64,000 nt of DNA, taken from the NCBI GenBank assembly GCA_903895195.1, contig CAITSZ010000034.1:47104-111103 (forward strand), in the 5' to 3' direction. Under the pieces are notes generated by a model, which made no database searches, was not told the DNA's origin, and saw nothing but the letters and a program-made list of their open reading frames with translations. Position numbers and translations under genes: made by a program. Positions 46,676 through 61,493 of this stretch are shown in pieces (position 1 is the stretch's first letter; the number at the start of each line of letters is the position of its first letter). The stretch is from an uncultured Chlorobiaceae bacterium (GTDB lineage: Bacteria; Bacteroidota; Chlorobiia; Chlorobiales; Chlorobiaceae).

Positions 46676-47218
46676 TTACGGCGAAGCTTTCTTTGCCAAC
46701 GTGCTCAACGTATCATTCAACGTATTACTTTTCTTTGCACTGCTACTCGAACTACCGAAATAGTAACTATAGATTGATGTTAATATTGATGAAAGAACAC
46801 CCAATATATACAAGATGATTTCTTTTACCGTAGTTCGTTGGTCTTGCTTTTCTTTCAAAGCGGTTCTTGCATACGCAACTTTATTTTTAAGAAATTGTTT
46901 GTCTTCTTTGAGACCTTCTTCTCGTGTTTTTTGACGAGTGGAATCGATTTTCGATAATTTGACATGTAACTTTTTCTCAGTTGCTTGACGAGTAGAATCA
47001 ACTATAGCAAGTTTTGATGCCTTTTCGTATATCTCTTCGGCAGAAGAAACTGCCTTGATTTCATCGCTGGGAGTAACCTTAAGCACAAAAATAAATACCC
47101 CAAACGTTATAAAGGTGAGGATAACCGTAACCAAAGCAAGAATTGGCGATATATTCTTACTAAGCCCACCATCAACTTGATCAGACGCCTGTTTTTTCTG
47201 TTCAGCATTATCAGACAT
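46676..47218 (-). CDS. Hypothetical membrane protein, 180 aa
   Basis: Strong SD (GAGGAGGG) upstream of the ATG. Two hydrophobic helices flank a charged coiled-coil-like region. No family recognised. Confidence 0.55.
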   Translation of the reverse strand: MSDNAEQKKQASDQVDGGLSKNISPILALVTVILTFITFGVFIFVLKVTPSDEIKAVSSAEEIYEKASKLAIVDSTRQATEKKLHVKLSKIDSTRQKTREEGLKEDKQFLKNKVAYARTALKEKQDQRTTVKEIILYILGVLSSILTSIYSYYFGSSSSSAKKSNTLNDTLSTLAKKASP

Positions 47219-47497
47219 ACAATACCCTCCTCTATGACGTTGGTTATGCTGTATGAACTTTTCATTCAGCTGTTTGACCGGTGATGAACGACTTAATAAA
47301 TTATCGAGAAAACGACAGTGTAATATATAAATTAAGTATAATTTTAAAGATAGATTGATCCAATATGTATTCCGGATTTGAGTTCAGTCAAAGCAAACCG
47401 TTATCATTTGAAATGTTGACCGCTGGAGTCATCAAACAAACAGCAGAAAAGCAGATCGCGGTGATACACATGAACTGAAATAAAAAAAGGAGTTATT

Positions 47498-48526
47498 ATG
47501 CAGCGTGAACCTGGAACAAATGAGCAAAAGCTTGCGGAAACAGCAAACGCTCTTGTCGCTCTCGATAAGGGTCTCCTGGCATTGGATGAGAGTAATCCAA
47601 CCTGTAACAAACGATTTGCCCGGTATGGAATTCCTCAAACAGAGGAGATGAGACGAAACTACCGTGAGCTGATTGTGACAACTGAAGGACTCGGAGAGTT
47701 CATTGGCGGCGCCATCCTCTACGATGAGACCATCCGCCAGAAGAAAAAAGACGGGACACCCCTTATTAAACTCATCATTGATGCCGGAATTATTCCCGGT
47801 ATTAAAGTGGACGGCGGGGTAAAGGAGATGGCTGGTCATCCCGGAGAGCAAATATGCGAAGGTCTTGACGGATTGAGAGCGCGTCTGGCCGAATACTCTC
47901 AGCTGGGGGCCCGTTTTGCCAAATGGCGCGCGGTCATTACCATTGGAAATGGTATTCCCAGCCAGGCTTGCATTGAAGCCAATGCCCACACGCTGGCCCG
48001 TTATGCCGCGTTTTGCCAGGAAGCTGGCATGGTGCCTGTTGTCGAACCGGAAGTGCTTATGGACGGTGATCATACACTGGAAAGGTGCCGCGAAGTGACT
48101 GAGGAAGTTCTTCACTCGGTTTTCGATCAGCTTTACCGCCAGCGAGTAACTCTTGAGGGCATGATTCTTAAAGCCAACATGGTTCTTCCGGGATTGAGCT
48201 GCCCTCAACAGGAAACAACTATTGAGATTGCAGAAGCTACCGTAAAATGTCTCATGCGGGTTGTCCCTGCAGCTGTTCCGGGAATCACGTTTTTGTCAGG
48301 AGGGCAATCTGCTGAATTGGCATCTGAGAGGTTAAATGCCATGAATATGAGATTCAAAGCACGATCACCCTGGGCATTGGCATTTTCATTTGCCCGTGCC
48401 ATCCAGCAACCTGCCTGGGAGATATGGCAAGGAAAAGAGGCTAATGTAGTTGCGGCACAGCAGGCCCTATTGCATCGAGCGAAATGCAACCGTGACGCAC
48501 GCCGTGGAGAATATCAGGGTGACTGA
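47498..48526 (+). CDS. Class I (Schiff-base) fructose-bisphosphate aldolase
   Basis: GLLALDESNPTCNKRF, ILYDETI, GIKVD and the LEGMILKANMV region match class I aldolases. AAAGGAG SD upstream. Confidence 0.85.
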   Translation: MQREPGTNEQKLAETANALVALDKGLLALDESNPTCNKRFARYGIPQTEEMRRNYRELIVTTEGLGEFIGGAILYDETIRQKKKDGTPLIKLIIDAGIIPGIKVDGGVKEMAGHPGEQICEGLDGLRARLAEYSQLGARFAKWRAVITIGNGIPSQACIEANAHTLARYAAFCQEAGMVPVVEPEVLMDGDHTLERCREVTEEVLHSVFDQLYRQRVTLEGMILKANMVLPGLSCPQQETTIEIAEATVKCLMRVVPAAVPGITFLSGGQSAELASERLNAMNMRFKARSPWALAFSFARAIQQPAWEIWQGKEANVVAAQQALLHRAKCNRDARRGEYQGD

Positions 48527-48867
48527 CTTCTGCCGGTTGAAAAGGAAGATGATTGTCATGGAGAGCGAAAATAAAGAGTTGTTGGCGGTTACTCATGAAA
48601 AGTTCTCAACATTCAAGGAGCTTAGCGAATAATCAGGGCCTGAGTTTGCCTGGGAAAAAATACTGGAAGGGTTTCCAGAGCAGCAACAGCATCGAATGAG
48701 CCCGTTTATTGAACATGCCACTCTGGCTGAGGGATTTAACAAAGCCATTCCTTTTATTAAAAGCATCGGCATGGAGATGGAGGTTGCTTGTGTAGGTTTA
48801 CATATGAGTTCCGTAATGTGTATTATACACCTTCAAGGAGCAAACCTTTTATGACATTGAAAAGCTA

Positions 48868-49575
48868 ATGGTACAGAGCAACAGCATTTATTTCTCTACT
48901 CCTGTTAACGCACTTGTTGAGGGAATATACATCCAGAAAATTCCATTTTCCGACATCAAGAAGCATGGGGATTTCGGGTTGGGCACCTTTGATAATCTGG
49001 ACGGCGAAATGGCTATGCTTGATGGTGCGATTTACCAGATCACGTCAAATGGTGTTGCAGCGAGAGTAAGCGAAGAGACATTAACACCGTTTACCTGCGT
49101 TACCTTTTACAAGCCGGTGAGCCACGACCAACTTCAGGAAGAGTGCTCTTATAAGGTTTTTCTTGACTGGTTGTTCAGTCTTCTTCCTTCGCCCAACATT
49201 TTTTATGCTATTAGGATAGAAGGTTCTTTTGCCGAAATCAAAGTCCGTTCGGTTCCTCGACAGGAGAATTATCGCCCGTTAGCAGAAGTGGCAAAAGATC
49301 AGCCGGTATTTAATTATAAAGGGATAGAGGGGACTCTGGTAGGATTTTATACACCTGCATTCATGGGATCAGTAAGTGTTCCCGGCATGCACCTTCATTT
49401 TCTTTCGGCAGACCGAACTCTTGGAGGGCACTTGCTGGAATGCAGACCATCTGATATCAGGGCGGGCATACAGTTTATCACTACCCTTGAATTGGGACTG
49501 CCAATGAGCTTTGATTATCTGACCTGTGATTTTCAACGCGATGTGCAGCAGGATTTGGAGAGCGCTGAACGGTAA
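48868..49575 (+). CDS. budA: Alpha-acetolactate decarboxylase
   Basis: HGDFGLGTFDNLDGEMAMLDGAIYQ and GFYTPAFMGSVSVPGMHLHFLS are AlsD/BudA hallmarks. Confidence 0.85.
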   Translation: MVQSNSIYFSTPVNALVEGIYIQKIPFSDIKKHGDFGLGTFDNLDGEMAMLDGAIYQITSNGVAARVSEETLTPFTCVTFYKPVSHDQLQEECSYKVFLDWLFSLLPSPNIFYAIRIEGSFAEIKVRSVPRQENYRPLAEVAKDQPVFNYKGIEGTLVGFYTPAFMGSVSVPGMHLHFLSADRTLGGHLLECRPSDIRAGIQFITTLELGLPMSFDYLTCDFQRDVQQDLESAER

Positions 49576-49616
49576 ACGTGGATAGTTTAGGGGCTGCTTC
49601 GATTACATTCCTGACG

Positions 49617-49913
49617 TTATGGCTCAAACCGCAAATAAATGCGCTCCTTTTCCTTTTGCTTGTCAATGACTACTTTATTGGCGTATTGCCGAATAAGTGC
49701 TACCGAAAGACTGGTAATGGCAACGGCAAGAAAGCCCGCAGTCACAATCCCTTCTGCCTCATGCTGTGTTCCATGAACCTCAGCAACCAGCATAAGGGGA
49801 TAAACGATAAAGACAAGAGCAAGCACAGCATGCTGAAACGCCAGAAAAAACAGGGTAGAAAAGGGTGGCAGATCATCGACGCCATAAATGATATTGGAGG
49901 GCTTCTGATTCAT
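49617..49913 (-). pseudogene. Truncated N-terminal fragment of an NCS2 (xanthine/uracil-type) permease
   Basis: IIYGVDDLPPFSTLFFLAFQHAVLALVFIVYPLML matches the NCS2 N-terminus (YG.DD.PP....LL..QH.LAM). The ORF is only 98 aa versus more than 400 expected, and its tail is unrelated. Confidence 0.5.
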
Positions 49914-49927
49914 GGGAATAATGCTTA

Positions 49928-50359
49928 TTAGAGCCTGCCCGTTGACGATGAACGATTGACAACCAATCTCAGGACGTTTTGATCATTTCGCCTCCGATAA
50001 CTGACGCTGTCGGAAAATTTGCGGATAAAATAGCCACCAAGCCCCCCGATTTCACGGTCAGCAATATCAAGAGAGGTATCAGGGTCGGGAAGCGATAATA
50101 CATTAAAAGGGCTTCCTGAATCCAAAATTTCAACGACAAGCGCATCGTCAACCCTGTCACACAAAACTTCAATCCTCCCCTTCCGGTCAGGAGAGGAATA
50201 GTTGCAGACATTGACGAAAGCCTCTTCAACGGCGATCAGCAGTCCGAACTTTTTTTTCGAATCAAGTCCGAATTGATCAGCACATCCCTCAATGAATTCA
50301 GTGATTTCCGGCAGCTTCTCAACATTGGCTGCCACTATTTTATTGCATGTGTCCGTCAT
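49928..50359 (-). CDS. RsbW/SpoIIAB-type anti-sigma regulatory factor (GHKL Ser/Thr kinase)
   Basis: 143 aa. LLIAVEEAFVNVCNY (N-box), ILDSGSPFN (G1) and GGLGGYFIRKFSD (G2). Confidence 0.85.
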   Translation of the reverse strand: MTDTCNKIVAANVEKLPEITEFIEGCADQFGLDSKKKFGLLIAVEEAFVNVCNYSSPDRKGRIEVLCDRVDDALVVEILDSGSPFNVLSLPDPDTSLDIADREIGGLGGYFIRKFSDSVSYRRRNDQNVLRLVVNRSSSTGRL

Positions 50360-50698
50360 TTAACCAAGCGAAGCACTCAATGCGCTTGCCACCGAGTCGT
50401 GCGTTGGAAAAAGGGTGCAGAAACCAGAAATCTCGAATACATCTTTGACCACTCCCGTGATATTTGCAAGAAGGAGTTTTCCGTTTACAGCTTTGACCCT
50501 TTTAGCTGTAGCAAGGAGAACACGCAGCCCGGCACTGCTGATATAGTCGACCTGTTCAAAGTCAACGATAAAGCTTATCTCTCCTTCAGCAATCAGCTCG
50601 CTGAACTTCTTTTCATATTCCGGTGCAGTTAGGGCATCCATCTTTCCGGTTATTGTCACTATAAGGGCTGTTGTTTCTTTACTGGTCTGAATAGGCAT
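50360..50698 (-). CDS. STAS-domain anti-sigma-factor antagonist (RsbV/SpoIIAA-like)
   Basis: 112 aa. IVDFEQVDYISSAGLRVLL carries the conserved phosphorylatable Ser loop. It ends directly adjacent to the RsbW-like start. Confidence 0.85.
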   Translation of the reverse strand: MPIQTSKETTALIVTITGKMDALTAPEYEKKFSELIAEGEISFIVDFEQVDYISSAGLRVLLATAKRVKAVNGKLLLANITGVVKDVFEISGFCTLFPTHDSVASALSASLG

Positions 50699-50752
50699 GT
50701 TCTCTTTCCTTTTTAATAGTTGCGTAAATATGACCCTCTTAATATGACATCA

Positions 50753-51844
50753 CTACTGTTTTTTCAAAATCAGAGTTACCCTGTTTTTATTATTCAGTCG
50801 CTGGTAATCGATGCTCTCCGTTACGCTCTGGATAAGGGTCAATCCCAACTCGTCAGATAATAGATTTTTGTCAAGCACATTCATTGCCTCACCGGTGCTT
50901 TCAAAGACAACTTCCAGACTCTCCTTTTTTTCTGAATAGGCAAGATTGATATCAAGGAGTGCCTTAGAGAGAAAAGGATTGTATATCTGCAGCATCTCTT
51001 CAACAATCAGGAGAAGATTGTATCTCTGCTTCACAGCCAGAATCTGTTTATCGCAAAAGGTCTCTATTTCAGCATTCATTGCATACAAATCATAGTCAGG
51101 AGAAGCGATATGATAGGTAAAACTTCTTACCCTGTTTATGAATGTCTTGGTCTTTTCTTTTTGGGGATGAACAAAAATCTGCTCAGGAGTACCTTCTTCG
51201 TAGATAATACCGTCATCCATATAGAGCACCCGATTTGAAACGTCCCTGGCAAAATCCATTTCATGGGTGACAATTGCCATGGTCATGCCGGCTTTAGCCA
51301 ATCGGCGGATAACCGACAAAACTTCGCTTACCATGGTGGGATCAAGCGCCGAAGTCGGCTCGTCAAAAAGAATAATTTTAGGATCCATAGCCATGCAGCG
51401 GGCGATGGCAACGCGTTGTTTCTGACCGCCGGAAAGTTCGTCAGGGTAACTTTCGGCCTTTTCAGCAAGACCTACAAGTTTAAGAAGGTCAACGGCTTTA
51501 CTCCCTGCATCCTCCTTACTCATCCCTAAAAGCTTAATCGGCCCGAGAGTCAGATTATCCATCACAGAGAGATGAGAAAAAAGATTAAACGATTGAAAAA
51601 CCATGTTCATCTTCTGCCGGACTTTTGGTACGTCGGCTTTTGGATCCAGGATGTCAACTCCATCAATCCGGATTGAACCGCCACTTGGTCGATCAAGCAG
51701 GTTGATACAGCGCAAAAAAGTGCTTTTACCAGTTCCGGAAGGTCCAATAATTGAAATAACTTCTCCTGCCTTTATTTCAACAGTGATATCTTTCAGCACT
51801 TCCAGATTCCCGAAACTCTTGGAAAGATGATCTATCTTTATCAT
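50753..51844 (-). CDS. Polar-amino-acid ABC transporter ATPase with ~115-aa C-terminal RsbW-like extension
   Basis: Walker [10 protein letters not shown], signature LSGGQKQR, Walker [12 protein letters not shown] and H-loop VTHEM within residues 1-245. Residues ~250-363 align by eye with the adjacent RsbW-like protein (see findings). Confidence 0.85.
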
Positions 51845-53580
51845 GCGTTTGTTATCGGTTTTCTGTTGAGTTTAGGGTTAGCCAACCGTTCAGCATACTC
51901 CATGAACAACATGAGAAACCATGAAATCAGGTAATACAAAACGGCAACCATGATAAGGGGAAAAAAGGCATCAAAGGTACGACTGCGAATGATGTCACTT
52001 GCCTTCGTCAAATCCTGCACGGCAATGTATCCTACTATGGAGGTCATTTTAACCAGCGAAATAAATTCGCCCTTATAGACTGGCAGTATGCGCTGAACGG
52101 TTTGCGGGAGAACAATAAAAATAAAGGTGTTGACCCTGGTAAAGCCCATGGCAATTCCAGCTTCAGACTGCCCTTTATCTATACTCTCTATGCCTGAACG
52201 GTATATTTCCGCAACATACGCCGCAAAATTCATCCCGAATGCAATAACTGAAACAATAACAGGATCAATATTTACCGAAGCAAAGACGACATAAAATATC
52301 AGCATTAAAAACACCAGTACAGGTGTTCCCCGTAAAATAGAGATATAGGTTTTCGCCAGCACATTGAGTATTGCGTTTTTAGACATTCTCATAAAACAGA
52401 CAATCGCACCAAGGACGGTGCCGAAAAAAGTTGAGAGCACTGAAATAATCACAGTTGTTTTCAGCCCTTCCAGAATAAGCAGATAACGATTTTCCTGAAC
52501 GATATTACTCTGCATGCTGTTAGCTATACCGGCAAAAAATGAGGGGATCTCTCCCGTCTTTTTACTCACCCTCACCTCTTTATTGAGTGCTATATTTTTT
52601 TTCAGCACAAACATATTGGCCAGAACAATATCAGAAGGGGTTTTGTAGTGCAGGATTGTTGCTTTTGGATATGTTTTTATAGCATAAGCGTCATGAACAG
52701 AACCAAGCGAAACCCCAATCCGCCTGTCTTTCAGATCGGCAGCAGATGAAATTTCAGTTGCTTCTTTTTTTCCGGCAACTCCGGGTTTATTGACGAGCAT
52801 GACCTGTGCATTGAGAAAGTAAGACTGTGTGAAGTTCACCTTTTTTTTGCGCTCTTCTGTTGCAGTCATCCCTGATATAATAAGATCCACCTTGCCTGAT
52901 TGCAATGCAGGTATAAGCGCCATAAATTTCATGTTATGAAATTCAATCGGCCGATGGAGTCTGGCCCCGATGATGCGTGCCAGCTCACCATCAAATCCAA
53001 TCACTCTGCCATTTTTGTCAACAAAATTAATCGGTTCACGCGTAGCGGTTACCCCTATTTTTAAAATCTGACCGCGCGAAGGAAGTGCAATCTGCTTTTC
53101 TTCATAGGGAGTCATCTCCTTTTTGAACCAGCGCCTGTTCATATCCGCCAGCGTGCCATTGGCTTTCAATTCACCTACAATCCTGTCGACTGCGGCAAAG
53201 AGCTGTTCATCCTCTTTTTTAACCGCAATAGACGTATCCTCGTCTTTAAGCCTCTCGTTGAGGCATACAAGTTCCGGATTTTTCTTTGATACCTGAAGAG
53301 CTGTAACGGATGTTGTAACAATAGCATCAAGCTGACCTGACTTTATTGCCGCAACTGCGTCCATGATGTCATCAAAACTTTTGATCTGCGCATCCGGAAA
53401 CTTCGCATTGGCAATAGTCTCTCCGGTTGTACCGGTCATCACACCGATTTTTGCAAATTTGGCATCAGCAAAACTCGTTATGAACAACTCATTTTTACGG
53501 CACCCGGCAAAAGCAATAACAAACAAAAAAAATGAAAGCAGCGGGACTACCCTCTTTTTCATCTTCCACTCTTTATTCAT
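51841..53580 (-). CDS. Fusion of periplasmic amino-acid-binding domains with an ABC permease (His/Glu/Gln/Arg/opine family)
   Basis: Lipoprotein-like signal FAGC. SBP_bac_3-type blocks ([38 protein letters not shown]). The C-terminal permease has the EAA-like loop [14 protein letters not shown]. Confidence 0.8.
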
Positions 53581-54358
53581 TGACCACTGCTGCTATACCG
53601 CCAATGTAGTAAGGGTCAGAAAAGAGAACTTTTTTGGCTCGCTCATCGGTAATAGTGATACATGCAGCAATCATATCAACCTTGCCGGAAATCAATGCCG
53701 GAATCATTGCGCCGAACTCCATATTGACAACTTCAAGTTTCATATCAAGCTTTTTAGCAACATAACGGGCAAGTTCGATATCAAATCCCACAATACCCCC
53801 TGAGCCATCAACAAAAGAAAACGGTTCTGTTACACTTGATGTACCAAGCCTCAAAACACCTTTGTTGCCGGTTAATGGAATCGCCGGCATAGGAGCTGGA
53901 TTGCCTGTTTTGGGAAACCAGCGCTGCATCATGGCATCATAACCGCCATTTTTTTTCAGCTCGCCCACAACAAGATCAATATTTCTTTTCAGCTCACGAT
54001 TATCTGGCTGAACTGCAAAGCCGTAATTATCCGTTGTGATCATCTCTGGAAGCACCAGAAGTCCACTGTTTTTTGCCACTATGTTTTTCAGAATCGGTTC
54101 ATCATATGCTGCCGCATCAGCCTTGCCGGTTTTAACCGCCAACACTGCGTCCATGACACTGTTGAAGTACTTGAATTTGGCATTGGGTAATTTTGAGAGT
54201 ACCAGCTTGTCAGCAACGGTTCCGGTCGGTACTGCAATCTCCATGCCGTCAAGTTGTTGAAGCTTTGTAATTTTTTCTCTTTTGCTGTTGCAGCCTGACA
54301 GCATGAAAAATGAAGAAAAAATTACTACCAGTAGAATCCTGAAATTATTAGCGATCAT
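53573..54358 (-). CDS. Periplasmic polar-amino-acid-binding protein (SBP_bac_3), apparently circularly permuted
   Basis: Signal plus lipobox-like LSGC. The canonical N-terminal block (PFSFVD..G.IVGFDIELARYVAKKL...IPALISGKVDMIAA.ITIT.ERAK) lies in the C-terminal half of this protein. Confidence 0.75.
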   Translation of the reverse strand: MIANNFRILLVVIFSSFFMLSGCNSKREKITKLQQLDGMEIAVPTGTVADKLVLSKLPNAKFKYFNSVMDAVLAVKTGKADAAAYDEPILKNIVAKNSGLLVLPEMITTDNYGFAVQPDNRELKRNIDLVVGELKKNGGYDAMMQRWFPKTGNPAPMPAIPLTGNKGVLRLGTSSVTEPFSFVDGSGGIVGFDIELARYVAKKLDMKLEVVNMEFGAMIPALISGKVDMIAACITITDERAKKVLFSDPYYIGGIAAVVNE

Positions 54359-54440
54359 AACACTTCTTTTTTTTGGTTAAACAGAAATTCCCCGAGGAAA
54401 ATATAAAACTAAAAACTTCTCCCCCTGATACATGCAGGCA

Positions 54441-56381
54441 TCATACATCGGTAACAATGCCGCGATATTTTATGGCAACCATGGTAACATCATCGGACTG
54501 AGGTGCCCCGTTGGCATGACGGGTCACTTCTGCCCGGATGGTGTGAATCATGTCGGTAAGGTCATCTTTTGAGCCATCATTCAACGCCTGCAAAAGCCTC
54601 GACTCTCCGTAGAGCTCTTCTTCAGGATTTTTCGCCTCAGTCACCCCGTCAGTATAAAGAAAAAGGATATCCCCCTTCTGGAGGGTCAAGTGCTCGGTTT
54701 CATAAACAGAATCCGGCATAGGCCCAAGCACAAATCCATGTTTCGGTGCAAGATACCGTATTCCCAGGGAGTCAATAATCAGGGGCGGATTATGGCCCGC
54801 ATTGGCAAAACGAACCTCTCCACTTCCGGTATCAAGAATTGCGCAAAAAACAGTCGCAAACATGCAACTCTCATTATCTGCCGCAAGAATGTTATTGACA
54901 TAGGAAAGGATCATAGCGGGTTCTCCAAGGCGCTGTCCTTCTGACTTCAAGAGGGTCTTGGCAACCATCATGTAAAGGGCAGCGGGGACCCCCTTATCAG
55001 CTACATCTGCAATAAGAAAACAGAGATTGTTGTCGTCAATAAAAAAGAAATCGTAAAAGTCGCCACCGACCTCTTTAGCCGGGTCCATAGAGGCAAAAAT
55101 ATCGAACTCGGGACGATCCGGAAATGCAGGAAACAACCGCGGCAAAAGACTGGCTTGAATATCAGTTGCCACCTTGAGCTCGCTCTGTATACGTTCTTTT
55201 GCAGCGGTGGTCTCCGTGAGATTTTTAATGTACTCCTTAAGCGACGTGACCATCAACTGAAACGATGAAGTCAGCACACCAACTTCATCATTCGACCTAA
55301 CCACTGGAAGTTCAATATCAAAGTTGCCAGAAGCCATAACCTCTGTAGCCTCAGCAAGTGATCGGAGAGGTTTGGTAATGGAGCTTGCAATTGAGTATAC
55401 CGCCAATGTCAAAAGCAGAATTCCTGCAAGTCCCATGCCGGCCATGGTTAAGCTCAGCTTTCTGACGTTTTCGACCAGCTCCTCTTCAGGGAATACCACA
55501 GCAAGAGTCCATCCAGTTGAACGGATCGGAGCAAAATACATCCAGCTTTTAACCCCGACAAGACTTGTATAGTGCACAAACCCGGACTCCCCCTGGACCA
55601 TCTTCTTGCCAAGGTCCCGCAAGGAAGTATCATGCCTCGACTCTGCAATACTAAAAAAAGTCTCATTCATGATCGCATCCTTCAAAGGATGAGCAAGCAC
55701 CATCCCGTTACGGGAGAGAAGCGCTGCATAACCGGTTTTAAGAATTTTAACAGAAGAGATAAGCTCTGTCAGCGAGACAAGAGGAATATCCGATGTCACA
55801 ATTCCCTTGAGAATCCTCGTTCCACCTCGGTCCAGGTAGAAAGGAACCGAACAGGTAGCCATCGCAATATTAGCGCCTCCATCATCATAATAGGGTTCAC
55901 TCCATTCAAGTTTACCCAACTCCCGCGGAATCTGATACCAGTCCCAATAAACATAAGGCACATACTGATAAGAGTCTTCCAGGCGTATGAATGTGATTTT
56001 TCCTTTTTCCCTGTAAAAATAAGGAGCATACAGGCGATTAGCTTTTCTGAAGGCATAGGGCTCAAATGCAATTCCAGCCCCATATATCCTGGGATTATCC
56101 TCTAAAGTCGTCCTGATCCGGGCAAGAAGTTCATTTTCAGTATACCTGCCCGTTTCCATCGATCGGGCCACTCCTTCAGTAACCTTAGTAACCGACACAA
56201 GCTCACTCTCTACCCTGTTCACCAAAGACATTGCAAGATTACGGGCATTGTTTTCCAGCTCTTGTTCGAGAATAAGGCGCGACTCGTAATAATTATAACC
56301 AAGCGTGAAAGCAAAAATAAGCACACTGCAAAACGTGATCACAAGAATCAGCTTAAAGACAATGCTTTTATGGCCGGGCAT
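54441..56381 (-). CDS. Membrane sensor phosphatase: double-Cache-like periplasmic domain, HAMP, PP2C/SpoIIE (RsbU-type) domain
   Basis: TM1, then a ~280-aa extracytoplasmic region and TM2. HAMP (ITKPLRSLAEATEVMASGNFD). PP2C blocks GGDFYDFF, ADVADKGVPAAL, NAGHNPP, LYTDGVTEA and DDVTMVAI. Confidence 0.85.
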   Translation of the reverse strand: MPGHKSIVFKLILVITFCSVLIFAFTLGYNYYESRLILEQELENNARNLAMSLVNRVESELVSVTKVTEGVARSMETGRYTENELLARIRTTLEDNPRIYGAGIAFEPYAFRKANRLYAPYFYREKGKITFIRLEDSYQYVPYVYWDWYQIPRELGKLEWSEPYYDDGGANIAMATCSVPFYLDRGGTRILKGIVTSDIPLVSLTELISSVKILKTGYAALLSRNGMVLAHPLKDAIMNETFFSIAESRHDTSLRDLGKKMVQGESGFVHYTSLVGVKSWMYFAPIRSTGWTLAVVFPEEELVENVRKLSLTMAGMGLAGILLLTLAVYSIASSITKPLRSLAEATEVMASGNFDIELPVVRSNDEVGVLTSSFQLMVTSLKEYIKNLTETTAAKERIQSELKVATDIQASLLPRLFPAFPDRPEFDIFASMDPAKEVGGDFYDFFFIDDNNLCFLIADVADKGVPAALYMMVAKTLLKSEGQRLGEPAMILSYVNNILAADNESCMFATVFCAILDTGSGEVRFANAGHNPPLIIDSLGIRYLAPKHGFVLGPMPDSVYETEHLTLQKGDILFLYTDGVTEAKNPEEELYGESRLLQALNDGSKDDLTDMIHTIRAEVTRHANGAPQSDDVTMVAIKYRGIVTDV

Positions 56382-57384
56382 TAGACCTCCTCGAAAACGC
56401 TGTATAATCCGGATAACTGTGAATCAGGCCTTCACGTTGCATAGTATTTCCAACCGCTTCATAATCCATGCTGTTAAGCGTCCCCATACCTCCCTTACCC
56501 TTGCCGGGTTTCACAAGGTCCTGCATTCGGTCAAGCATCCATTTCTGGTGGATCCGATTCGCAGGAACCTGAGCCAGATGCATATACTTGATAACGATCT
56601 CAAGCGCCTCGTCAGGATGAGCAAAAGCATATTGCCACCCTTCAAGCGAAGCACTGACAAAGGCATCTGCCAGAGCCGGATCCCTTGTAATGGTTTTTTC
56701 CAGAGTGTAAAGACCATCCTCGGGAAAATTCATACCCTGGTCACTGAGAAACACAGCATTCAGCTGCTCCGCATCCACACCGGAATTAAGGATAACGTGA
56801 TACTCGTTATACCACATGGCCGAGGTCACATCAATTCCCCCCCGCAAAAAAAGGTTCACCGTGTGCGAAAGGGGCACTTCCCTTACTGCAATGCCATGTT
56901 TTAAAAATAACGTCCTGGGAGGAATGGAAAGGTCTCCCCCCCACAGACCGACCTTTTTGCCTTTCATATCTTCCAAGCTTCTGATTCCGCTGGATTTTTT
57001 GGAAATCAGCATCATAGAAGACCTCTGAATAATTTGCGACACATTGACAAGCTTTGTGCCGGCATTCCGATGCTGAAGAGCTGTAGTGAGCCATAGAACA
57101 GCAAAATCAGCCTGACCACTCTGTAAAGATTCTGCAGCAGAATGACCTGCACCACCATTAAGAATTGTCAAATCAATCCCATGCCTGGCATAAATCCCTT
57201 TATCAAGAGCCACATAATACCCTGCAAACTGGGCTTGTGGGCTCCAAAGGGGAATGAGTGTGGCTTTTTTGAGGGCAATATGAGCTATTGCAGATTGCGT
57301 ATAAACAGAGCAGAAGATGAACATCTGAAGAATTCCCAGGATACGCACGAATAACTGCATTTGATTGGAACTCTTGTACCTCAT
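56368..57384 (-). CDS. NMT1/THI5-like (NitT/TauT-type) periplasmic substrate-binding protein
   Basis: Signal-like MRYKSSNQMQLFVRILGILQMFIFCSV. PLWSPQAQFAGYYVALDKGIY and GKKVGLWGGD are typical of NMT1-like SBPs. The start is uncertain (57384, 57360 or 57447). Confidence 0.7.
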   Translation of the reverse strand: MRYKSSNQMQLFVRILGILQMFIFCSVYTQSAIAHIALKKATLIPLWSPQAQFAGYYVALDKGIYARHGIDLTILNGGAGHSAAESLQSGQADFAVLWLTTALQHRNAGTKLVNVSQIIQRSSMMLISKKSSGIRSLEDMKGKKVGLWGGDLSIPPRTLFLKHGIAVREVPLSHTVNLFLRGGIDVTSAMWYNEYHVILNSGVDAEQLNAVFLSDQGMNFPEDGLYTLEKTITRDPALADAFVSASLEGWQYAFAHPDEALEIVIKYMHLAQVPANRIHQKWMLDRMQDLVKPGKGKGGMGTLNSMDYEAVGNTMQREGLIHSYPDYTAFSRRSNARP

Positions 57385-57563
57385 TGTAATCCTGAGCATC
57401 TCCGTTCCCCTTTTCATGAATAGATCTGGCAGAGGGAATCCGTGCATGAACCAATAGTTACGGCGTCAGAGGATATTGTGCTAAAAACAACTACAGCCCT
57501 CCTGCTCTTTTTTTAAGCAACTTTCCAATGTAACTATATTTCAGATGATCTGTTATCCCCAAT

Positions 57564-57775
57564 CTCAGCCCTCAGCCCTGAATACTCATAACTCCGAAAC
57601 CTGCCCACTGCCAACTACCAACTTTTCCCCCTTTCCCTCAGCACTCAGCACTTTTTTCCCTTGCCAACTGCTTCATCTTCGCTCAGCACTCAGCACTCAG
57701 CACTCAGCACTCAGCACTCAGCACTTTTTTCCCTTGCCAACTGCCAACTGCCAACTTTTCCCCCTTTCCCTCGGC
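57564..57775. repeat. Composite heptanucleotide tandem-repeat array (CTCAGCC x2, CTGCCMA x3, CTCAGCA x2 and x6, TGCCAAC x3) with T/C-rich linkers
   Basis: Read directly: 57682-57724 is 6 consecutive CTCAGCA units, and 57735-57755 is 3 TGCCAAC units. The linkers TTTTCCCCCTTTCCC and TTTTTTCCCT each occur twice. Confidence 0.9.
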
Positions 57776-57782
57776 ACTATAT

Positions 57783-58616
57783 TTAAAGCCCCGGCCAATC
57801 TTCCAGTTTAGGGGCTGAACTCTTTTCTCTCAATAAGTCAGGCGGAAGTGCAGGGAAAAAAGTAACACCTGTTTCTTTGGTAATATCCGATATCGGCACA
57901 GCGTATTTGGGTAAATCACTTGCCGAAACGGCAGCATTCGGGATCTTGAAACCGATAAACTTGCCTGCCTTTTTGTCCACGATCACCTTCCACATAGCCA
58001 TCGGCACACCAATACTATCCTTCCCGATCTTTCTGTATGGTGAACCATAGATTGTACCGGTTACCACGTAAAGGTCTTTTCCTTTTCTGACCCAGTTCCG
58101 CACAACAGTTTCAAGTTTTTTCCATATCCCTCGATTGAGGTTTGGATTTTGCGGCACAATATTACTTAGCAAAAAACACTCCGACATAATTTTTGCTGAT
58201 TGCGTGTTATCGTCAGCAGGATCAAGATGACCTCTGTCATAAGTCTTATCGTAGTCGCTCAAATTAGCACGTACTGAATCCGCCAATTCAGGATCAGCCC
58301 GAAAATCGTCTTTTCGCTTTGCCGGTCCGCTTATTGCTTTTTTGGTAAGATGTTCACAAACATATTCAGCGGTTTTTGTCCTGTAGAGATAATGCACTGC
58401 ATACGTCGTCCTGATAAGATACTGATCACTTTTGGTTACCGGACTTTCAGGCGCTCCCCAGCAGACAAGTTGCGAAGCTTTATCGTCAATCGGGTTGGCA
58501 TATGCAAAGATGGAGTTGAGGGCCTGAAAAGAGAGGATAAGGCAGAGCGACATTGCCGCCATGCTGAATTTGGCGGTATTTTTTTTCATCACTTTAGTCC
58601 TGTTCTGAATGTTCAT
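57783..58616 (-). CDS. Secreted DNA/RNA non-specific endonuclease (NucA / Endonuclease_NS family)
   Basis: Signal peptide. Catalytic YDRGHLDPADDN (DRGH motif) and a downstream NIVPQ...N..IW. Confidence 0.85.
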   Translation of the reverse strand: MNIQNRTKVMKKNTAKFSMAAMSLCLILSFQALNSIFAYANPIDDKASQLVCWGAPESPVTKSDQYLIRTTYAVHYLYRTKTAEYVCEHLTKKAISGPAKRKDDFRADPELADSVRANLSDYDKTYDRGHLDPADDNTQSAKIMSECFLLSNIVPQNPNLNRGIWKKLETVVRNWVRKGKDLYVVTGTIYGSPYRKIGKDSIGVPMAMWKVIVDKKAGKFIGFKIPNAAVSASDLPKYAVPISDITKETGVTFFPALPPDLLREKSSAPKLEDWPGL

Positions 58617-58860
58617 GAGTTATCGTCAGAAACAACACCGCCAGACATCAAACGAAGTGTTAAAATGCCCGCTCTCACCACTTTTATCAATCACCCTGTA
58701 ATTGATAACGAAATGGCAGAACTGTAAATGTGTACTATCTGAAAAAAAAATAATTCGTGGGTATCTACATGACTGCCTGCCAATGCTCTTTCATTTTTTG
58801 AAAAAGCATTGATGATATATGAAACCATTCGTTGTGAACAAAAGAATCCTTTACAAATTT

Positions 58861-59169
58861 CTATGCAATGTCATCTTTCAAGCTGTCACTGACGGCGTGC
58901 TTGAACTCCTTTGAAATCTTGAATGCCGGTACTTTTTTAGCATCCACAGTAACTTTTTCTCCAGTTCTTGGATTTCTTGCATCCCGCAGATTTTTGTGCC
59001 TGATATTGAACGAGCCGAAACCTCTTATCTCAATTCTTTTACCTGCTTTAAGTGAATCAATAACACTTTCAAAAAAAGCGTCCACAACCGATTCTGTCTC
59101 GTATTTCGTCAGACCTGTTTTTCCGGAAATAGAATTAACAAGATCTGCTTTTGTTGTTGTCGTTCCCAT
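58861..59169 (-). CDS. HU/IHF-family DNA-binding protein (IHF-beta-like)
   Basis: RIEIRGFGSFNIRHKNLRDARNPRTGEKVTV is the IHF/HU beta-arm signature. 102 aa. Confidence 0.85.
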   Translation of the reverse strand: MGTTTTKADLVNSISGKTGLTKYETESVVDAFFESVIDSLKAGKRIEIRGFGSFNIRHKNLRDARNPRTGEKVTVDAKKVPAFKISKEFKHAVSDSLKDDIA

Positions 59170-59320
59170 GATGATGTATATAAATTAACCGTTAAAAGTA
59201 AGCGCAGTTTACAATGTACATATATATAAGCAAATGAAGTCCACAATGCACATATATATCTTAAACGTTTTAATACAATAAGAGTTCCCGGGAGAAGGGT
59301 AAAGTCGGCACCCAGCACTC

Positions 59321-60385
59321 TCATTGACTTCCCCTCGTCAACCCCGGATAATCAGTATACCCTTCCGGGCCACTGGCAAAGAATGAAGCCGGAAGAGGCA
59401 CGTTGAGCCCTGCATTCAGACGGAGGCGCTCTGGAAGATCAGGATTGGCTATGAATAAAACGCCGAATGATACTGCATCAGCCTCCCCGTCAGCCAGCAG
59501 TTGCTCAGCTGTTGATTTGGTCAGGCCTTCGTTGGCAATATAAATACCGCCGAACGCTTTTTTGAGTTCCGGCCCCAGGCGATCTTCGCCGAGATGTTCG
59601 CGAGCGAAAATGAACGCTATCTTGCGCTTTCCAAGCTCGCGGGCAATATAGCCGAAAGTGGCTGACGGATTGGAATCTCCCATCGATTGCGTGTCACAAC
59701 GAGGTGCCAAATGCATACCGACGCGACCAGCTCCCCACACCGAGACGACAGCATCGGTCACTTCGAGCATTAATCGGCTTCGATTTTCAATTGAACCGCC
59801 ATAGTGATCTGTGCGTTTGTTTGAACCGTCTTGTAAAAACTGGTCCAGCAGATATCCGTTTGCACCATGGATTTCCACAGCATCAAATCCGGCTTCCATG
59901 GCATTTTCAGCACCTTTGCGGAATGCTTCAACAACTGCTGGTATCTCCTCAAGCCGCAGTGAACGGGGAACTGGATAGGCAACAGACTTGTCCAGCAGCC
60001 GCACATGACCTTCCGCGGCTATGGCACTTGGTGCTACGGGCTCTGCGCCGTTCAGAAAATACGAATGAGAAATGCGGCCGACATGCCATAGCTGCATGAG
60101 TATTCTGCCCCCGGCTGCATGCACCGCTTTGGTAATAAGCTTCCACCCCTCAATCTGCTCTCGGCTCCAGATACCTGGTGTATCGGGGTAGCCGACTCCC
60201 ATGGGGGTAACTGAAGTGGCTTCTGAAAAAATAAGTCCAGCCGAGGCGCGCTGAACATAGTACTCTGCCATCAAGGCATTTGGCACACGACCTTCACTGG
60301 CCCGGCAGCGCGTCAGCGGGGCCATAAAAATACGATTCGGCAAAACAAGGTCTCCGATTTTCAGGGGGTCGAACAAGCCCGGCAT
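59321..60385 (-). CDS. Old Yellow Enzyme family NADH:flavin oxidoreductase (alkene / N-ethylmaleimide reductase-like)
   Basis: MAPLTRCRA, QLWHVGR, HGANGYLLDQFL and GRVGMHLAP are OYE blocks. Confidence 0.85.
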   Translation of the reverse strand: MPGLFDPLKIGDLVLPNRIFMAPLTRCRASEGRVPNALMAEYYVQRASAGLIFSEATSVTPMGVGYPDTPGIWSREQIEGWKLITKAVHAAGGRILMQLWHVGRISHSYFLNGAEPVAPSAIAAEGHVRLLDKSVAYPVPRSLRLEEIPAVVEAFRKGAENAMEAGFDAVEIHGANGYLLDQFLQDGSNKRTDHYGGSIENRSRLMLEVTDAVVSVWGAGRVGMHLAPRCDTQSMGDSNPSATFGYIARELGKRKIAFIFAREHLGEDRLGPELKKAFGGIYIANEGLTKSTAEQLLADGEADAVSFGVLFIANPDLPERLRLNAGLNVPLPASFFASGPEGYTDYPGLTRGSQ

Positions 60386-60785
60386 GATTATACTCCTTTA
60401 ATAATATTAACGGTTATATCCGCTGTTATGCACTGCATCATACCTCATCAGGGTTGAGTATTTCATGAATAGTTTTCATCAGCGATTTGAAAGAGAATGG
60501 TTTCCGGATAACGCAAAGGGATTCATTCAACTCATTAGTTGAACAAATAATTGGATGAACGCACAATGTACATACTCACAGGAATAAATCGAGCTTCTCT
60601 GATAAAACTGAGCATGGCAGAGCGATCATAAAGCTTTCAACGCAATTGATTATTCCCCCGAACCGCTATCAGGTTCACATCCAAAAAAGCTCTGCTTGCT
60701 TTGATTTTTCACTCATATTGTGGACATTGATTTTATATGCAGGCATTTGTTGAGGATACTTACGATAACGATAATTATTACTTCC

Positions 60786-61478
60786 ATGTATTTTGATCCA
60801 ATGTATTTTGTTTTTGCCATGCCCCCTATGGTTCTCGGGTTATGGGCACAGTTCAAGGTCAAATCCTCTTTCAAGAAATATTCACAGGTACGAACCCAGA
60901 CCGGGATTACCGGAGCCGAAGCGGCGAGGCGGATTCTCCAGCAGGGTGGCCTCGTCAATGTAACAATTGAAACTGCCCAGGGCATGCTTTCCGACCACTA
61001 TGATCCGCGCAGCAAATCGCTGCGATTGAGCGAAGAGGTGTTCAACGTGCCCAGTATTGCCTCAGTGGGCGTTGCGGCCCATGAAGCCGGACATGCACTT
61101 CAGGACAAGTCAGGCTATATGCCCCTGCAGCTGCGTTCTTTCATGGTCCCGGCTGTGTCCATCGGCAGCAATCTCGGCCCGATTATCTTTATGGCAGGCA
61201 TCTTTCTTGCAGGAACACTTGGAACAACTCTTGCATGGGCAGGCATTCTGCTTTTTGGAGCAACGGCACTTTTTGCGCTTGTGACACTTCCTGTCGAATT
61301 CGATGCCAGCCGCCGTGCAAAAGCACTTCTTGTTTCACAAGGCATTGTTTCAAGTGCCGAAATGAAGGGGGTCAACGCTGTGCTTGATGCTGCCGCGCTG
61401 ACCTATGTTGCCGCCGCTGCCCAGGCCATTACACAGCTGCTTTATTTCCTCACGGTAATGAACCGCAGAAACTCGTAA
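60786..61478 (+). CDS. Membrane zinc metallopeptidase (Zn_peptidase_2 family)
   Basis: MYFDP...LWAQFKVKSSFKKYS N-terminus typical of the family, HEAGHALQ zinc motif, and C-terminal TM helices. Start set at the internal ATG rather than the GTG at 60720. Confidence 0.75.
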   Translation: MYFDPMYFVFAMPPMVLGLWAQFKVKSSFKKYSQVRTQTGITGAEAARRILQQGGLVNVTIETAQGMLSDHYDPRSKSLRLSEEVFNVPSIASVGVAAHEAGHALQDKSGYMPLQLRSFMVPAVSIGSNLGPIIFMAGIFLAGTLGTTLAWAGILLFGATALFALVTLPVEFDASRRAKALLVSQGIVSSAEMKGVNAVLDAAALTYVAAAAQAITQLLYFLTVMNRRNS

Positions 61479-61493
61479 CATCTTTACTGAAAA

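Follow-up and report, generated by a model that had tools for sequence, protein, structure and literature searches.

Partner switches of the Bacillus RsbU-RsbV-RsbW and SpoIIE-SpoIIAA-SpoIIAB type combine a SpoIIE-family PP2C phosphatase, a STAS antagonist and a GHKL serine kinase, and those controlling a sigma factor normally keep its gene adjacent (rsbV-rsbW-sigB, spoIIAA-AB-sigF). Among ABC importers, known C-terminal domains of the ATPases pair under the NBD dimer and regulate its closure via ligands or proteins (EIIA-Glc, MalT), and sequestration of MalT by the C-terminal domain of MalK is an established precedent for a 'trigger transporter'. The polar amino-acid importer GlnPQ of Lactococcus lactis has one or more SBDs in the same chain as its TMD, on the N-terminal side, and its ATPase, GlnQ, has no C-terminal domain.

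Partner switches with non-sigma outputs include SiaABCD of Pseudomonas aeruginosa (PMC7647112) and HenR/All4160 of Anabaena (bioRxiv 10.64898/2026.04.08.717354), which control a diguanylate cyclase or a glycosyltransferase; in SiaABCD-type switches, the unphosphorylated STAS form acts on the non-sigma target. In MlaFEDB of E. coli, the STAS protein MlaB binds and controls the ABC ATPase MlaF, docking directly on the NBD core of a protein that has just a short C-terminal 'handshake' tail; the canonical phospho-site Ser/Thr of MlaB lies in the MlaF interface and a phosphomimetic weakens binding, but phosphoregulation is an open question, with no kinase or phosphatase for MlaB known (PMC7367683).

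The locus described here lies in a window of 64,000 nt (the whole stretch of DNA analysed) from an uncultured Chlorobiaceae bacterium (contig CAITSZ010000034.1, GCA_903895195.1, positions 47,104-111,103). As in the Bacillus systems, a SpoIIE-family PP2C phosphatase, a STAS antagonist and a GHKL serine kinase are all present and look intact; unlike in those systems, neither the window nor the surroundings of related loci contain a sigma factor gene, the phosphatase sits in the membrane, senses through a dCache domain in the periplasm and is associated with a binding protein, and an ABC ATPase carries a second RsbW copy, apparently without catalytic activity. The membrane HAMP-PP2C phosphatase, small RsbW-like kinase and STAS-like protein recall SiaABCD-type switches, whereas the targets of SiaABCD and HenR/All4160 lack an RsbW-like docking domain. 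As in MlaFEDB, a small STAS protein and the ATPase of an ABC transporter form a pair, but that system is an MCE lipid transporter rather than a putative polar amino-acid importer, and here the ATPase carries a whole RsbW-like receptor domain, with a dedicated kinase and phosphatase co-encoded. Like the NIL/ferredoxin-like domain of MetN and the TOBE domains of MalK, ModC and PotA, this is an extra domain of ~100-130 aa after the NBD, but its modelled fold is GHKL/Bergerat-like, not TOBE or ferredoxin-like. At least one SBD is fused to the permease and the ATPase is of GlnQ type, as in GlnPQ, from which the locus differs in the C-terminal domain of its ATPase and in SBDs that are circularly permuted relative to TcyJ. 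No published description of this arrangement was found in the literature.

Gene order and switch proteins

A sequence-only reading of the window had described seven minus-strand ORFs packed as one apparent operon. All seven coordinates were matched in the ORF list, the domain calls for all seven genes were matched by Pfam HMM searches, and the six junctions recomputed from the coordinates were again an overlap of 14 nt (the stop of the NMT1-like gene overlapping the PP2C start), a gap of 82 nt, overlaps of 8 nt and then 4 nt, a gap of 54 nt and a gap of 0 nt, where the stop of the STAS gene runs straight into the ATG of the kinase gene (TAAATG). Because the junctions are tight, the STAS and kinase genes meet at TAAATG and neither intergenic gap (82 nt, 54 nt) contains a terminator-like hairpin, the seven genes are consistent with a single operon, as judged from spacing and hairpin absence only. 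A ribosome-binding-site-like GGAAAGAG lies upstream of the STAS ATG.

The first gene (56368..57447, minus strand, as are all features below) encodes an NMT1/SsuA-like periplasmic solute-binding protein of 359 aa (Pfam NMT1, 7.6e-41) with a hydrophobic signal-like segment at its N-terminus; the NCBIfam model SsuA_fam matches with 52 bits, under its cutoff. Since homologues are 340-353 aa long, the true start probably lies 10-30 codons downstream of 57447. The gene accompanies the PP2C gene in 18 of the 21 loci having both STAS and PP2C, and the protein is a likely co-sensor of the phosphatase. That phosphatase (54441..56381, 646 aa) has the architecture TM-dCache-TM-HAMP-PP2C, with Pfam matches to SpoIIE (1.7e-51, residues 449-639), MCP-like_PDC_1 (2e-25), dCache_1 (6.7e-19) and HAMP (5.9e-13), and its sequence contains GGDFYD, DVADKG, TDGVTE and DDVT as metal-binding motifs. 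The NCBIfam model that fits it best is SiaA, with 93.7 bits against an equivalog cutoff of 700 bits, so it is not a SiaA orthologue; we propose that it forms the input arm of the switch.

The single-domain STAS protein (50360..50698, 112 aa; Pfam STAS, 1e-21) is of the anti-sigma-factor antagonist type (TIGR00377, 88.4 bits, over cutoff). The DYISSAGL motif of its phosphorylatable loop, noted in the sequence-only reading, is present; DYISSAGLR is near-invariant across 35 STAS orthologues, and S55, matched in the alignment to the phosphorylated serine of B. subtilis SpoIIAA (S58), is the predicted phospho-site. The last gene (49928..50359, 143 aa) encodes an RsbW-type GHKL serine kinase (Pfam HATPase_c_2, 1.8e-25) in which E45, E46, N50, D80, G82 and G105-G106-L107-G108 are invariant among 15 orthologues. 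In the profile match of this kinase to B. subtilis RsbW (6m36, 2.9e-8), the N, G1 and G2 boxes line up. We propose this soluble, motif-intact kinase as the resetting arm of the switch. Judged by their residues, the catalytic motifs of kinase, phosphatase and STAS are intact.

The importer and the additional domain of its ATPase

Three genes between the phosphatase and the STAS/kinase pair encode what their sequences identify as a GlnPQ-type polar amino-acid importer, consisting of a lipoprotein SBP, an SBD-fused permease and a GlnQ-like ATPase. The free SBP (53573..54358, 261 aa; Pfam SBP_bac_3, 1e-34) has an LSGC lipobox and aligns with E. coli TcyJ (BLASTP) in two halves of swapped order, that is, circularly permuted. 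Its NCBIfam matches to Lys/Arg/Orn, GlnH and cystine SBPs all fall under cutoff. The permease (51841..53580, 579 aa) carries an N-terminal SBD (SBP_bac_3, 2.8e-35) before its BPD_transp_1 domain (9.7e-19), exceeds the cutoff of the NCBIfam model HEQRo_perm_3TM and is, by its domain composition, a GlnP-like SBD-TMD fusion. We leave the substrate of the importer unassigned because all equivalog matches are under cutoff. In other loci 2-4 SBDs are fused to the permease, giving proteins of up to 1250 aa, and in P0216 and P0241 the whole transporter is a single chain, SBP-TMD-NBD-CTD.

The ATPase ORF (50753-51844) had been described simply as an ABC ATPase. The ABC_tran domain stands, but the protein is not a plain ATPase: at 363 aa, compared with ~240 aa for ordinary ones, it ends in ~125 residues that form an overlooked extra domain. 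The NBD (51140..51844, residues 1-235; ABC_tran, 2.8e-35) is of GlnQ/ArtP/HisP type, with both Walker motifs and the signature LSGGQ, GlnQ as best NCBIfam match of the ATPase, and Foldseek matches to 4yms/2olj/4u02 at TMt 0.81-0.85. It matches ArtP-type PDB chains at 1.7e-90 with the alignment confined to residues 1-239, and no PDB chain or NCBIfam model covers the C-terminal domain (50756..51139, residues 236-363). For this domain HATPase_c_2 is the sole Pfam family match, at E = 2.3e-4 in the window's own protein, and the only one in 17 of 20 members of the C-terminal-domain family (best 4.9e-8); aligned with hhalign to the profile of the co-encoded kinase, it matches with 95.6% probability (E = 1.2e-8). 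An AF2 model of the domain (pLDDT 90.4, pTM 0.84) gave Foldseek matches of which the top 18 in the PDB are all SpoIIAB, RsbW or UsfX (TM 0.55-0.76 by query length), several of them in complexes with a STAS partner (8ih8, 1th8, 6m36/6m37); SiaB-SiaC (6kko) is also among the matches. The Pfam match, the profile-profile match and the AlphaFold model thus agree on an RsbW/SpoIIAB-like fold, the last as a prediction. No solved ABC ATPase with an RsbW-like C-terminal domain is among the PDB matches.

In the profile alignment the N-box Asn is gone, the G1 segment is deleted and GGLG of G2 is replaced by ELGL. Because these ATP-binding and catalytic motifs are lost while the fold appears to be kept, we classify the domain, from its sequence, as a pseudokinase derived from an RsbW/SpoIIAB kinase. 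It always accompanies the NBD of this importer, also within the single-chain proteins.

Distribution and the sigma factor search

The fused ATPase is present in about 240 species-level genomes. Of 79 species-level loci, 33, which represent at least four phyla, have a STAS gene directly downstream of it, and a dCache-HAMP-PP2C gene is found in 21 of the 22 STAS-bearing loci with enough upstream sequence. These 33 switch-bearing loci belong to Chlorobiaceae, Desulfobacterota, Victivallales and Gamma-/Betaproteobacteria, and the arrangement NMT1 - PP2C - SBP/permease - ATPase - STAS - RsbW is shared among Chlorobiaceae, Desulfuromonadales/Geobacteraceae, Desulfobulbales, Victivallales, Methylococcaceae, Nitrotoga and Burkholderiaceae.

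The claim that the 64-kb window contains no sigma factor holds: sigma-70 and sigma-54 families had no Pfam match among its 64 non-overlapping ORFs (>=70 aa), and phmmer searches with E. coli RpoE, FliA, RpoS and RpoN returned nothing under E = 0.5. The sequence-only reading had also raised the prospect that homologous loci carry an adjacent sigma factor; one was found within ±10 kb in 0 of 85 related loci. The soluble kinase could still bind a sigma factor whose gene lies elsewhere in the genome, the search having covered the window and ±10 kb of the loci. A functional coupling of switch and transporter, in either direction and without a sigma factor, had been suggested from this window; it gains support from the 0/85 count, the conserved gene order and the RsbW-like domain of the ATPase.

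The importer as candidate output of the switch

We interpret the locus as a partner switch that works without a sigma factor and has the ABC importer itself for its output, with unphosphorylated STAS docking on the pseudokinase domain and gating transport, and give this reading a probability of about 0.5. The opposite direction of coupling would make the transporter a sensor, like MalK-MalT, rather than the target, with the soluble RsbW binding the real output, a sigma factor or enzyme whose gene lies elsewhere; the pseudokinase domain would then sequester STAS, the soluble kinase or even the sigma factor according to the transport cycle, so that flux would be a second input beside the dCache phosphatase. 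The facts that link switch and transporter fit such a sensor equally well, the soluble kinase is, by sequence, a complete RsbW homologue that could retain anti-sigma activity, and at one locus (L090) STAS, RsbW, NMT1 and PP2C form a compact four-gene module with no transporter within 8 kb, so that the module can work, or at least exist, apart from the transporter. We nevertheless consider a sensor role unlikely, because no other neighbour family recurs in more than 3 of the 33 switch-bearing loci to offer a conserved candidate output, no locus has a sigma factor within ±10 kb although sigma-controlling switches normally keep theirs adjacent, and a dedicated receptor domain fused to the ATPase fits control of the ATPase more economically. 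Least probable by far is a fortuitous adjacency, in which an unrelated transporter was inserted into a sigma-controlling Rsb operon and the sigma gene was lost or relocated: its one support is the position of the transporter between the phosphatase and the STAS/kinase pair in this single window, and it is effectively refuted by the comparative data, the same order recurring across four phyla in 33 or more species-level genomes, sigma factors being absent from all 85 loci and the ATPase itself containing an RsbW homologue.

Counting against the importer as output, about half of the fused ATPases have no switch genes next to them, and in 35 of the 79 fused-ATPase loci none lies within 10 kb. These 35 loci include Chlorobium L004/L005, which share the window's chromosomal site and of which L004 encodes a free SBP orthologue whose gene is 81% DNA-identical to the window's. 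The C-terminal domain is almost equally conserved in such loci, so its partners there would be encoded elsewhere or it would have a STAS-independent role. It may be an autonomous regulatory or dimerisation domain (compare MetN NIL and MalK/ModC TOBE), perhaps one through which a small ligand in the degenerate nucleotide pocket exerts trans-inhibition, with the switch genes a signalling unit of their own, merely co-transcribed or co-inherited in some lineages. Besides its presence and constraint in those 35 loci, this would agree with the Chlorobiaceae, in which the switch genes are accessory blocks flanking the core transporter on both sides at the same chromosomal site, with the interleaving of switch-bearing and switch-less loci on the ATPase tree, and with the fact that self-associating C-terminal regulatory domains are common in ABC importers (PMC7367683). 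However, the fold is specifically the one found in STAS-binding anti-sigma kinases and does not belong to the known ABC regulatory folds that bind small ligands; MetN, MalK, PotA and GlcV superpose on the NBD only, with full-length rmsd >10 Å; the ATP-pocket motifs are lost; and a STAS gene right after the ATPase in four phyla is hard to ascribe to chance co-inheritance. We regard an autonomous domain as a doubtful explanation, about as improbable as the sensor role.

With the importer as output, uptake would probably be switched by protein phosphorylation and not by transcription. The dCache domain of the HAMP-PP2C phosphatase would sense an external ligand, probably with the translationally coupled NMT1-like protein, and the phosphatase would remove the phosphate from STAS-S55~P. 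Unphosphorylated STAS would then partition between the soluble kinase and the pseudokinase domains below the two NBDs, where its binding would alter NBD closure and ATPase activity, and with them uptake, until re-phosphorylation by the soluble kinase released STAS and reset the pump. We infer the binding of STAS to the pseudokinase domain, its effect on transport and whether that effect is activating or inhibitory; for the sign there are two possible analogies, MlaB, which supports its ATPase, and the C-terminal domains of MetN and MalK, which mediate inhibition. As the natural docking partner of STAS, the anti-sigma-kinase fold is our proposed physical basis for coupling switch and transporter. 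In SpoIIAB-SpoIIAA complexes the G2/lid region presumably faces the STAS phospho-loop, and its counterpart here, the DELGLxII segment, is more conserved in STAS-encoding than in STAS-less loci, by a small difference uncorrected for phylogeny.

Layout of the putative operon and its parts

Seven minus-strand genes at 49928–57447 form a compact cassette in which the genes of a partner switch flank those of an ABC importer. From the upstream end they encode an NMT1-like binding protein (56368–57447; Pfam NMT1, 7.6e-41), a dCache/PDC, HAMP and SpoIIE (PP2C) phosphatase (54441–56381; SpoIIE, 1.7e-51), a free binding protein or SBP (53573–54358; SBP_bac_3, 1e-34), an SBD–permease fusion (51841–53580; SBP_bac_3, about 1e-35, and BPD_transp_1, 9.7e-19), a 363-aa ABC ATPase (50753–51844; ABC_tran, 2.8e-35), a STAS protein (50360–50698; STAS, 1e-21) and a 143-aa RsbW-type kinase (49928–50359; HATPase_c_2, 1.8e-25). 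The sequence-only reading had proposed these seven ORFs, with overlaps of 14, 8 and 4 nt at the first, third and fourth junctions and gaps of 82, 54 and 0 nt at the second, fifth and sixth; its coordinates match the ORF list exactly, the same junctions follow from them, and Pfam confirmed the domain calls of all seven genes. Since no terminator-like hairpin was found in either intergenic gap and the STAS stop codon abuts the kinase start, a single operon is plausible from the sequence; the promoter and terminator scans were at chance level (11 promoter-like sites versus 12.9 expected; 11 terminator-like sites versus 8.1 expected, none in the intergenic gaps). Upstream of the operon, the intergenic region between the endonuclease and NMT1-like genes holds perfect and dense heptamer tandem arrays at 57564–57756, comprising (GTGCTGA)x6.3 at 57682–57725, (CAGTTGG)x3 and (GGCTGAG)x2.3 (operon strand) plus longer composite repeats, and a GTGCTGA array also lies upstream of the transporter in another Chlorobiaceae locus (L012, 5942–5962); these arrays are a possible length-variable promoter region.

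As judged from its sequence, the transporter has the tested NBD, permease and SBP features of a polar amino-acid ABC importer (PAAT; GlnPQ/HisQMP/Art type). Walker A, Walker B, the signature motif and the H-loop can all be read in the NBD, which matches ArtP-type PDB chains at 1.7e-90 and 59–60% identity, and the permease is a BPD_transp_1 protein whose TIGR01726 score of 78.6 bits (cutoff 42.2) places it in the HEQRo 3-TM subfamily. The ATPase scored 299.9 bits with the GlnQ equivalog model, below its cutoff of 379, and all scores with the SBP equivalog models GlnH, ArtI/J, cystine, ArgT, HisJ and EhuB were below cutoff; an Rfam scan of 49000–59500 gave no riboswitch or leader match at E ≤ 1 and thus no hint to the substrate. 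The free SBP (53573–54358, minus strand) and the permease-fused SBD (52600–53580, minus strand) are circularly permuted relative to Escherichia coli TcyJ, with TcyJ residues 120–260 aligning to residues 14–148 and TcyJ residues 39–135 to residues 165–261. The out-of-order SBD halves prompted the alternative that the 261-aa SBP and 579-aa permease are a single frameshifted gene, which was rejected because the 261-aa SBP has its own lipobox and the same 260-aa gene occurs elsewhere, both in locus L006, where it also has an 8-nt overlap, and in loci without the switch; each of the two proteins carries its own lipobox or signal sequence.

The catalytic parts of the switch look functional at the level of their motifs. 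The phosphatase has readable metal-binding motifs (GGDFYD, DVADKG, TDGVTE and DDVT); the STAS protein scores above the TIGR00377 cutoff, its S55 aligns with the SpoIIAA phospho-serine S58, and the phospho-site motif is kept in 35 orthologues; and the 143-aa kinase has N, G1 and G2 boxes that do not vary among orthologues and align with Bacillus subtilis RsbW (6m36). The trio fits the definition of an RsbU/V/W-type switch in every feature but the sigma factor. The claim that the 64-kb window holds no sigma factor stood: a Pfam scan of every non-overlapping ORF of 70 aa or more (64 in all) gave no sigma-70 or sigma-54 family match, and phmmer with E. coli RpoE, FliA, RpoS and RpoN, queries that detect one another, gave no match below E = 0.5 among the window ORFs. 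The same four queries found nothing below that value in about 7,000 ORFs of 85 related loci with flanks up to 10 kb, so that a sigma factor adjoining homologous loci, a possibility raised in the sequence-only reading, is not present within ±10 kb of any of them.

The C-terminal domain of the ATPase

At 363 aa, the cassette ATPase is far longer than GlnQ, ArtP or HisP (about 240 aa), and its PDB and NCBIfam matches end at residue ~239. The remainder is an extra C-terminal domain (CTD; residues 236–363, window 50756–51139, minus strand) that the sequence-only reading had overlooked. Its sole Pfam match is HATPase_c_2, the RsbW/SpoIIAB family, which is sub-threshold in the window protein and reported in 17 of 20 CTD family members (best E 4.9e-8). 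Profile comparison of the CTD with the co-encoded 138–145-aa kinases gave a probability of 95.6% (hhalign; E 1.2e-8), and a confident AlphaFold2 model (pLDDT 90.4, pTM 0.84) had only anti-sigma kinases, namely SpoIIAB, RsbW and mycobacterial UsfX, as its top 18 PDB matches (Foldseek TM by query length 0.55–0.76, and at least 0.70 for the first six), several of them solved in complex with their own STAS partner. This kinship is visible only by profile methods and structure: pairwise BLASTP of the CTD against the neighbouring kinase gave no match (E 8.2), and a CTD profile search of PDB sequences returned chance matches only (Spc25, PdhR).

The hhalign alignment also shows what the CTD has lost. 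Its N-box reads VEEML-QIY in place of VEEAFVNIC, without the Asn, the G1 segment is deleted, and the G2 motif GGLG is replaced by ELGL; by its sequence, the CTD is therefore a pseudokinase, a homologue of the RsbW/SpoIIAB family without the kinase motifs. It is a candidate receptor for STAS, to which two indirect observations point: the STAS gene next to the ATPase gene in 33 of 79 loci, and the better conservation, in those loci, of the CTD segment equivalent to the kinase lid. The full-length ATPase model has a pTM of 0.61 and thus does not define the placement of the CTD relative to the NBD; only the NBD superposes on PDB structures (TM by query length at most 0.58). No solved ABC ATPase with a CTD-like domain was among the PDB matches, and MetN, MalK, PotA and GlcV, ATPases with other C-terminal domains, showed no superposition over the CTD part.

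Distribution and gene neighbourhoods of the fused ATPase

Close full-length homologues of the ATPase (73–91% identical, 361–389 aa) occur in Chlorobiaceae, Lentisphaerota, Desulfuromonadaceae and Geobacteraceae. An exhaustive CTD profile search of 1.84 billion cluster representatives returned just 335 clusters at E ≤ 1e-3, most of them fragments or proteins of ~360–373 aa with the CTD at the C-terminus, and when one genome was scanned for each of 185,579 species, 240 genomes proved to carry the domain, with Methylobacter tundripaludum, M. svalbardensis, Trichlorobacter thiogenes, Pelodictyon luteolum, ‘Ca. Nitrotoga fabula’ and Chlorobium limicola among the cultured carriers. Three longer matches that were scanned are transporter fusions of 569–882 aa, two of them single-chain SBP–TMD–NBD–CTD proteins. 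In one further predicted protein from the cluster search (P0127, 298 aa), the pseudokinase domain (residues 171–297) comes after a FliG_C domain; this is probably a gene-calling or assembly chimera.

The ORFs of 80 loci encoding the fused ATPase were searched with the seven window proteins (counts are out of 79), and in 33 of the 79 the ATPase gene is immediately followed by a STAS gene. Among STAS-bearing loci with enough upstream sequence, 21 of 22 have a dCache–HAMP–PP2C gene, preceded in 18 of those 21 by an NMT1-like gene. The RsbW-type kinase gene comes after STAS and is on the opposite strand in Methylococcaceae and Nitrotoga; dismissal of the weak opposite-strand matches in Methylococcaceae as spurious was considered and rejected, Pfam identifying them as genuine HATPase_c_2 proteins. 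Switch-bearing loci span Chlorobiaceae, Desulfuromonadales/Geobacteraceae, Desulfobulbales, Victivallales, Methylococcaceae, Nitrotoga and Burkholderiaceae. The feature is real and conserved.

The STAS orthologue group at ≥50% identity appears cassette-specific in the sampled cases, and below 49% identity other gene contexts turn up. At the boundary, a locus whose STAS is 49% identical to that of the window (L090, 8001–11749) encodes STAS, RsbW, NMT1-like and dCache–HAMP–PP2C proteins as a compact same-strand module, and no ABC transporter gene occurs within 8 kb of it. It follows that the switch and the NMT1-like protein are a unit complete in itself; in the cassette this unit is divided, with the transporter genes in between.

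Several other arrangements were observed. Four Trichlorobacter/Geobacter loci (L030, L050, L066 and L074) have a dCache–HAMP–PP2C gene (716–727 aa) downstream of the fused ATPase, sometimes with two unassigned ORFs between them, and no STAS or kinase gene in the available sequence. In locus L092 (6515–8333), an ammonium transporter (Amt) gene is followed, 65 nt downstream, by a distant STAS gene (44% identity), and an RsbW-like kinase and a HAMP–PP2C protein are encoded 7 kb away; this may be another transporter-linked switch. Locus L091 (9598–13206) encodes a single 1202-aa protein with SBP_bac_3, PAS, SpoIIE (PP2C) and HATPase_c_2 domains, which is a fused sensor–phosphatase–kinase, and a STAS gene ~1.3 kb upstream with one unannotated gene between.

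Candidate mechanism, rivals and precedents

The best-supported reading, which we hold at about even odds (probability roughly 0.5), is a partner switch without a sigma factor that has the importer as its output. The periplasmic dCache–HAMP–PP2C protein and the translationally coupled NMT1-like protein would set the phosphorylation of STAS S55 against the soluble kinase, and unphosphorylated STAS would dock on the pseudokinase domains beneath the NBD dimer. Docking would in turn alter ATPase activity and uptake, whether upwards or downwards.

Beyond the seven cassette families, no gene family recurs in more than 3 of the 33 STAS-bearing loci, which makes the transporter genes the sole conserved partners of the switch genes. 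The lack of a conserved candidate output among the neighbours counts against the reading in which the transporter is the trigger, feeding the switch while the output lies elsewhere; a sigma factor may be located distally in the genome, and we regard this direction of signalling as possible, if rather unlikely. Chance adjacency of switch and transporter is largely excluded by the comparative data and is very improbable. The two are also found apart: 35 of the 79 loci have the fused ATPase and no switch gene within 10 kb. Two Chlorobium loci of this kind (L004 and L005) represent the same chromosomal site as the window and, compared over window 46001–63338, share four blocks of DNA homology with it, namely flanking genes (63338–59346), the SBP gene (54360–53572), the permease TMD and the ATPase to its stop codon (52509–50749), and a distal gene (46599–46001). 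The NMT1, PP2C, STAS and kinase genes all fall within non-aligned stretches, and the homology breaks off no more than a few bases from the ATPase stop codon. These related Chlorobium loci have the same transporter, including the pseudokinase domain, without the four switch genes and also without the HU gene, the endonuclease gene and the permease SBD.

The switch-less loci speak for a further rival reading, that the CTD is an autonomous regulatory domain and the switch unrelated and merely co-located. Switch-bearing and switch-less loci are interleaved in the ATPase tree, and conservation of the CTD is nearly equal with and without switch genes; the CTD thus predates its link to the switch and is the more widespread of the two. 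Of the CTD, just the DELGLxII segment, which corresponds to the G2/lid region, is clearly better conserved where STAS is encoded. We consider this rival reading improbable, at much the same level as the transporter-as-trigger reading. In switch-less loci, the CTD may have partners encoded at other sites, as the stand-alone L090 module suggests, or it may have a STAS-independent role as well.

The closest functional precedents are MlaB–MlaF, in which a STAS protein binds an ABC ATPase with no known kinase or phosphatase and phosphoregulation is an open question for the authors (PMC7367683), the non-sigma partner switches SiaABCD (PMC7647112) and HenR/All4160, and the C-terminal regulatory domains of ABC importers, whose folds differ from that of the CTD. 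The cassette belongs to neither the Mla nor the Sia family; the defining features of both were tested and are absent. MlaFB belongs to an MCE/MlaE-type transporter, whereas the cassette has a BPD_transp_1 TMD, family 3 SBPs and no MCE protein; in MlaFB, STAS sits on the core of an NBD that ends in a C-terminal handshake tail, whereas the cassette ATPase ends in a 125-aa GHKL-like domain and resembles MlaF through the generic NBD only. The SiaA model scores the cassette phosphatase at 93.7 bits against a cutoff of 700, and the window holds no GGDEF protein, the diguanylate cyclase output of SiaABCD. Full-text searches of a literature collection mostly outside subscription journals turned up no account of an RsbW-like domain on an ABC ATPase, nor of an ABC importer under the control of a partner switch, which is absence of evidence only. 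Public records misannotate the cassette piecemeal, naming its ATPase ‘amino acid ABC transporter ATP-binding protein’ and its STAS protein ‘anti-sigma factor antagonist’, and this naming hides the link between ATPase and STAS.

Post-translational regulation of ABC transporters is poorly understood, and MlaB–MlaF is the one known STAS–ABC pair. Because one apparent operon here holds the sensor phosphatase, the kinase, STAS and an ATPase with a proposed receptor domain, phosphoregulation of ABC transporters by STAS becomes directly testable. Cultured organisms that carry the cassette include Chlorobium limicola, Pelodictyon luteolum, Methylobacter tundripaludum and ‘Ca. Nitrotoga fabula’. If the importer is indeed the output, partner-switching would reach nutrient uptake directly, beyond transcription, c-di-GMP synthesis and polysaccharide synthesis; a new fold would join the short list of regulatory domains on ABC ATPases; and the CTD would exemplify a bacterial pseudokinase reused as a docking module. 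A broader and more speculative proposal, which we think rather unlikely to hold, is that RsbW-like pseudokinase domains serve as portable ‘STAS receptors’, through which partner-switching connects directly to machines besides RNA polymerase, with control that could run both ways. The ABC importer would then stand in the sigma factor's place, with STAS alternating between the soluble kinase and the transporter: its phosphorylation state would gate uptake, and the conformational cycle of the transporter would set the amounts of free STAS and kinase, so that nutrient flux would feed into a wider signalling network, perhaps one with a distal sigma factor.

Elsewhere in the window, a second STAS-domain protein of 200 aa (6440–7042, plus strand; STAS at residues ~8–107, Pfam 7.4e-11, TIGR02886 3.5e-10) has a DSCG loop and then a long acidic tail ending in KKRGRPKK, an AT-hook-like motif. 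No kinase or phosphatase gene adjoins it, and RsbW-like domains could have it as a partner acting in trans. A plus-strand cluster at 29732–38867 encodes an acyl-CoA synthetase, a carboxyltransferase, two methylmalonyl-CoA mutase subunits (one with a B12-binding domain) and MeaB, and together with tRNA-Met (9856–9929) and tRNA-Pro plus tRNA-Arg (24888–25050) is ordinary housekeeping content, in keeping with a Chlorobiaceae chromosome.
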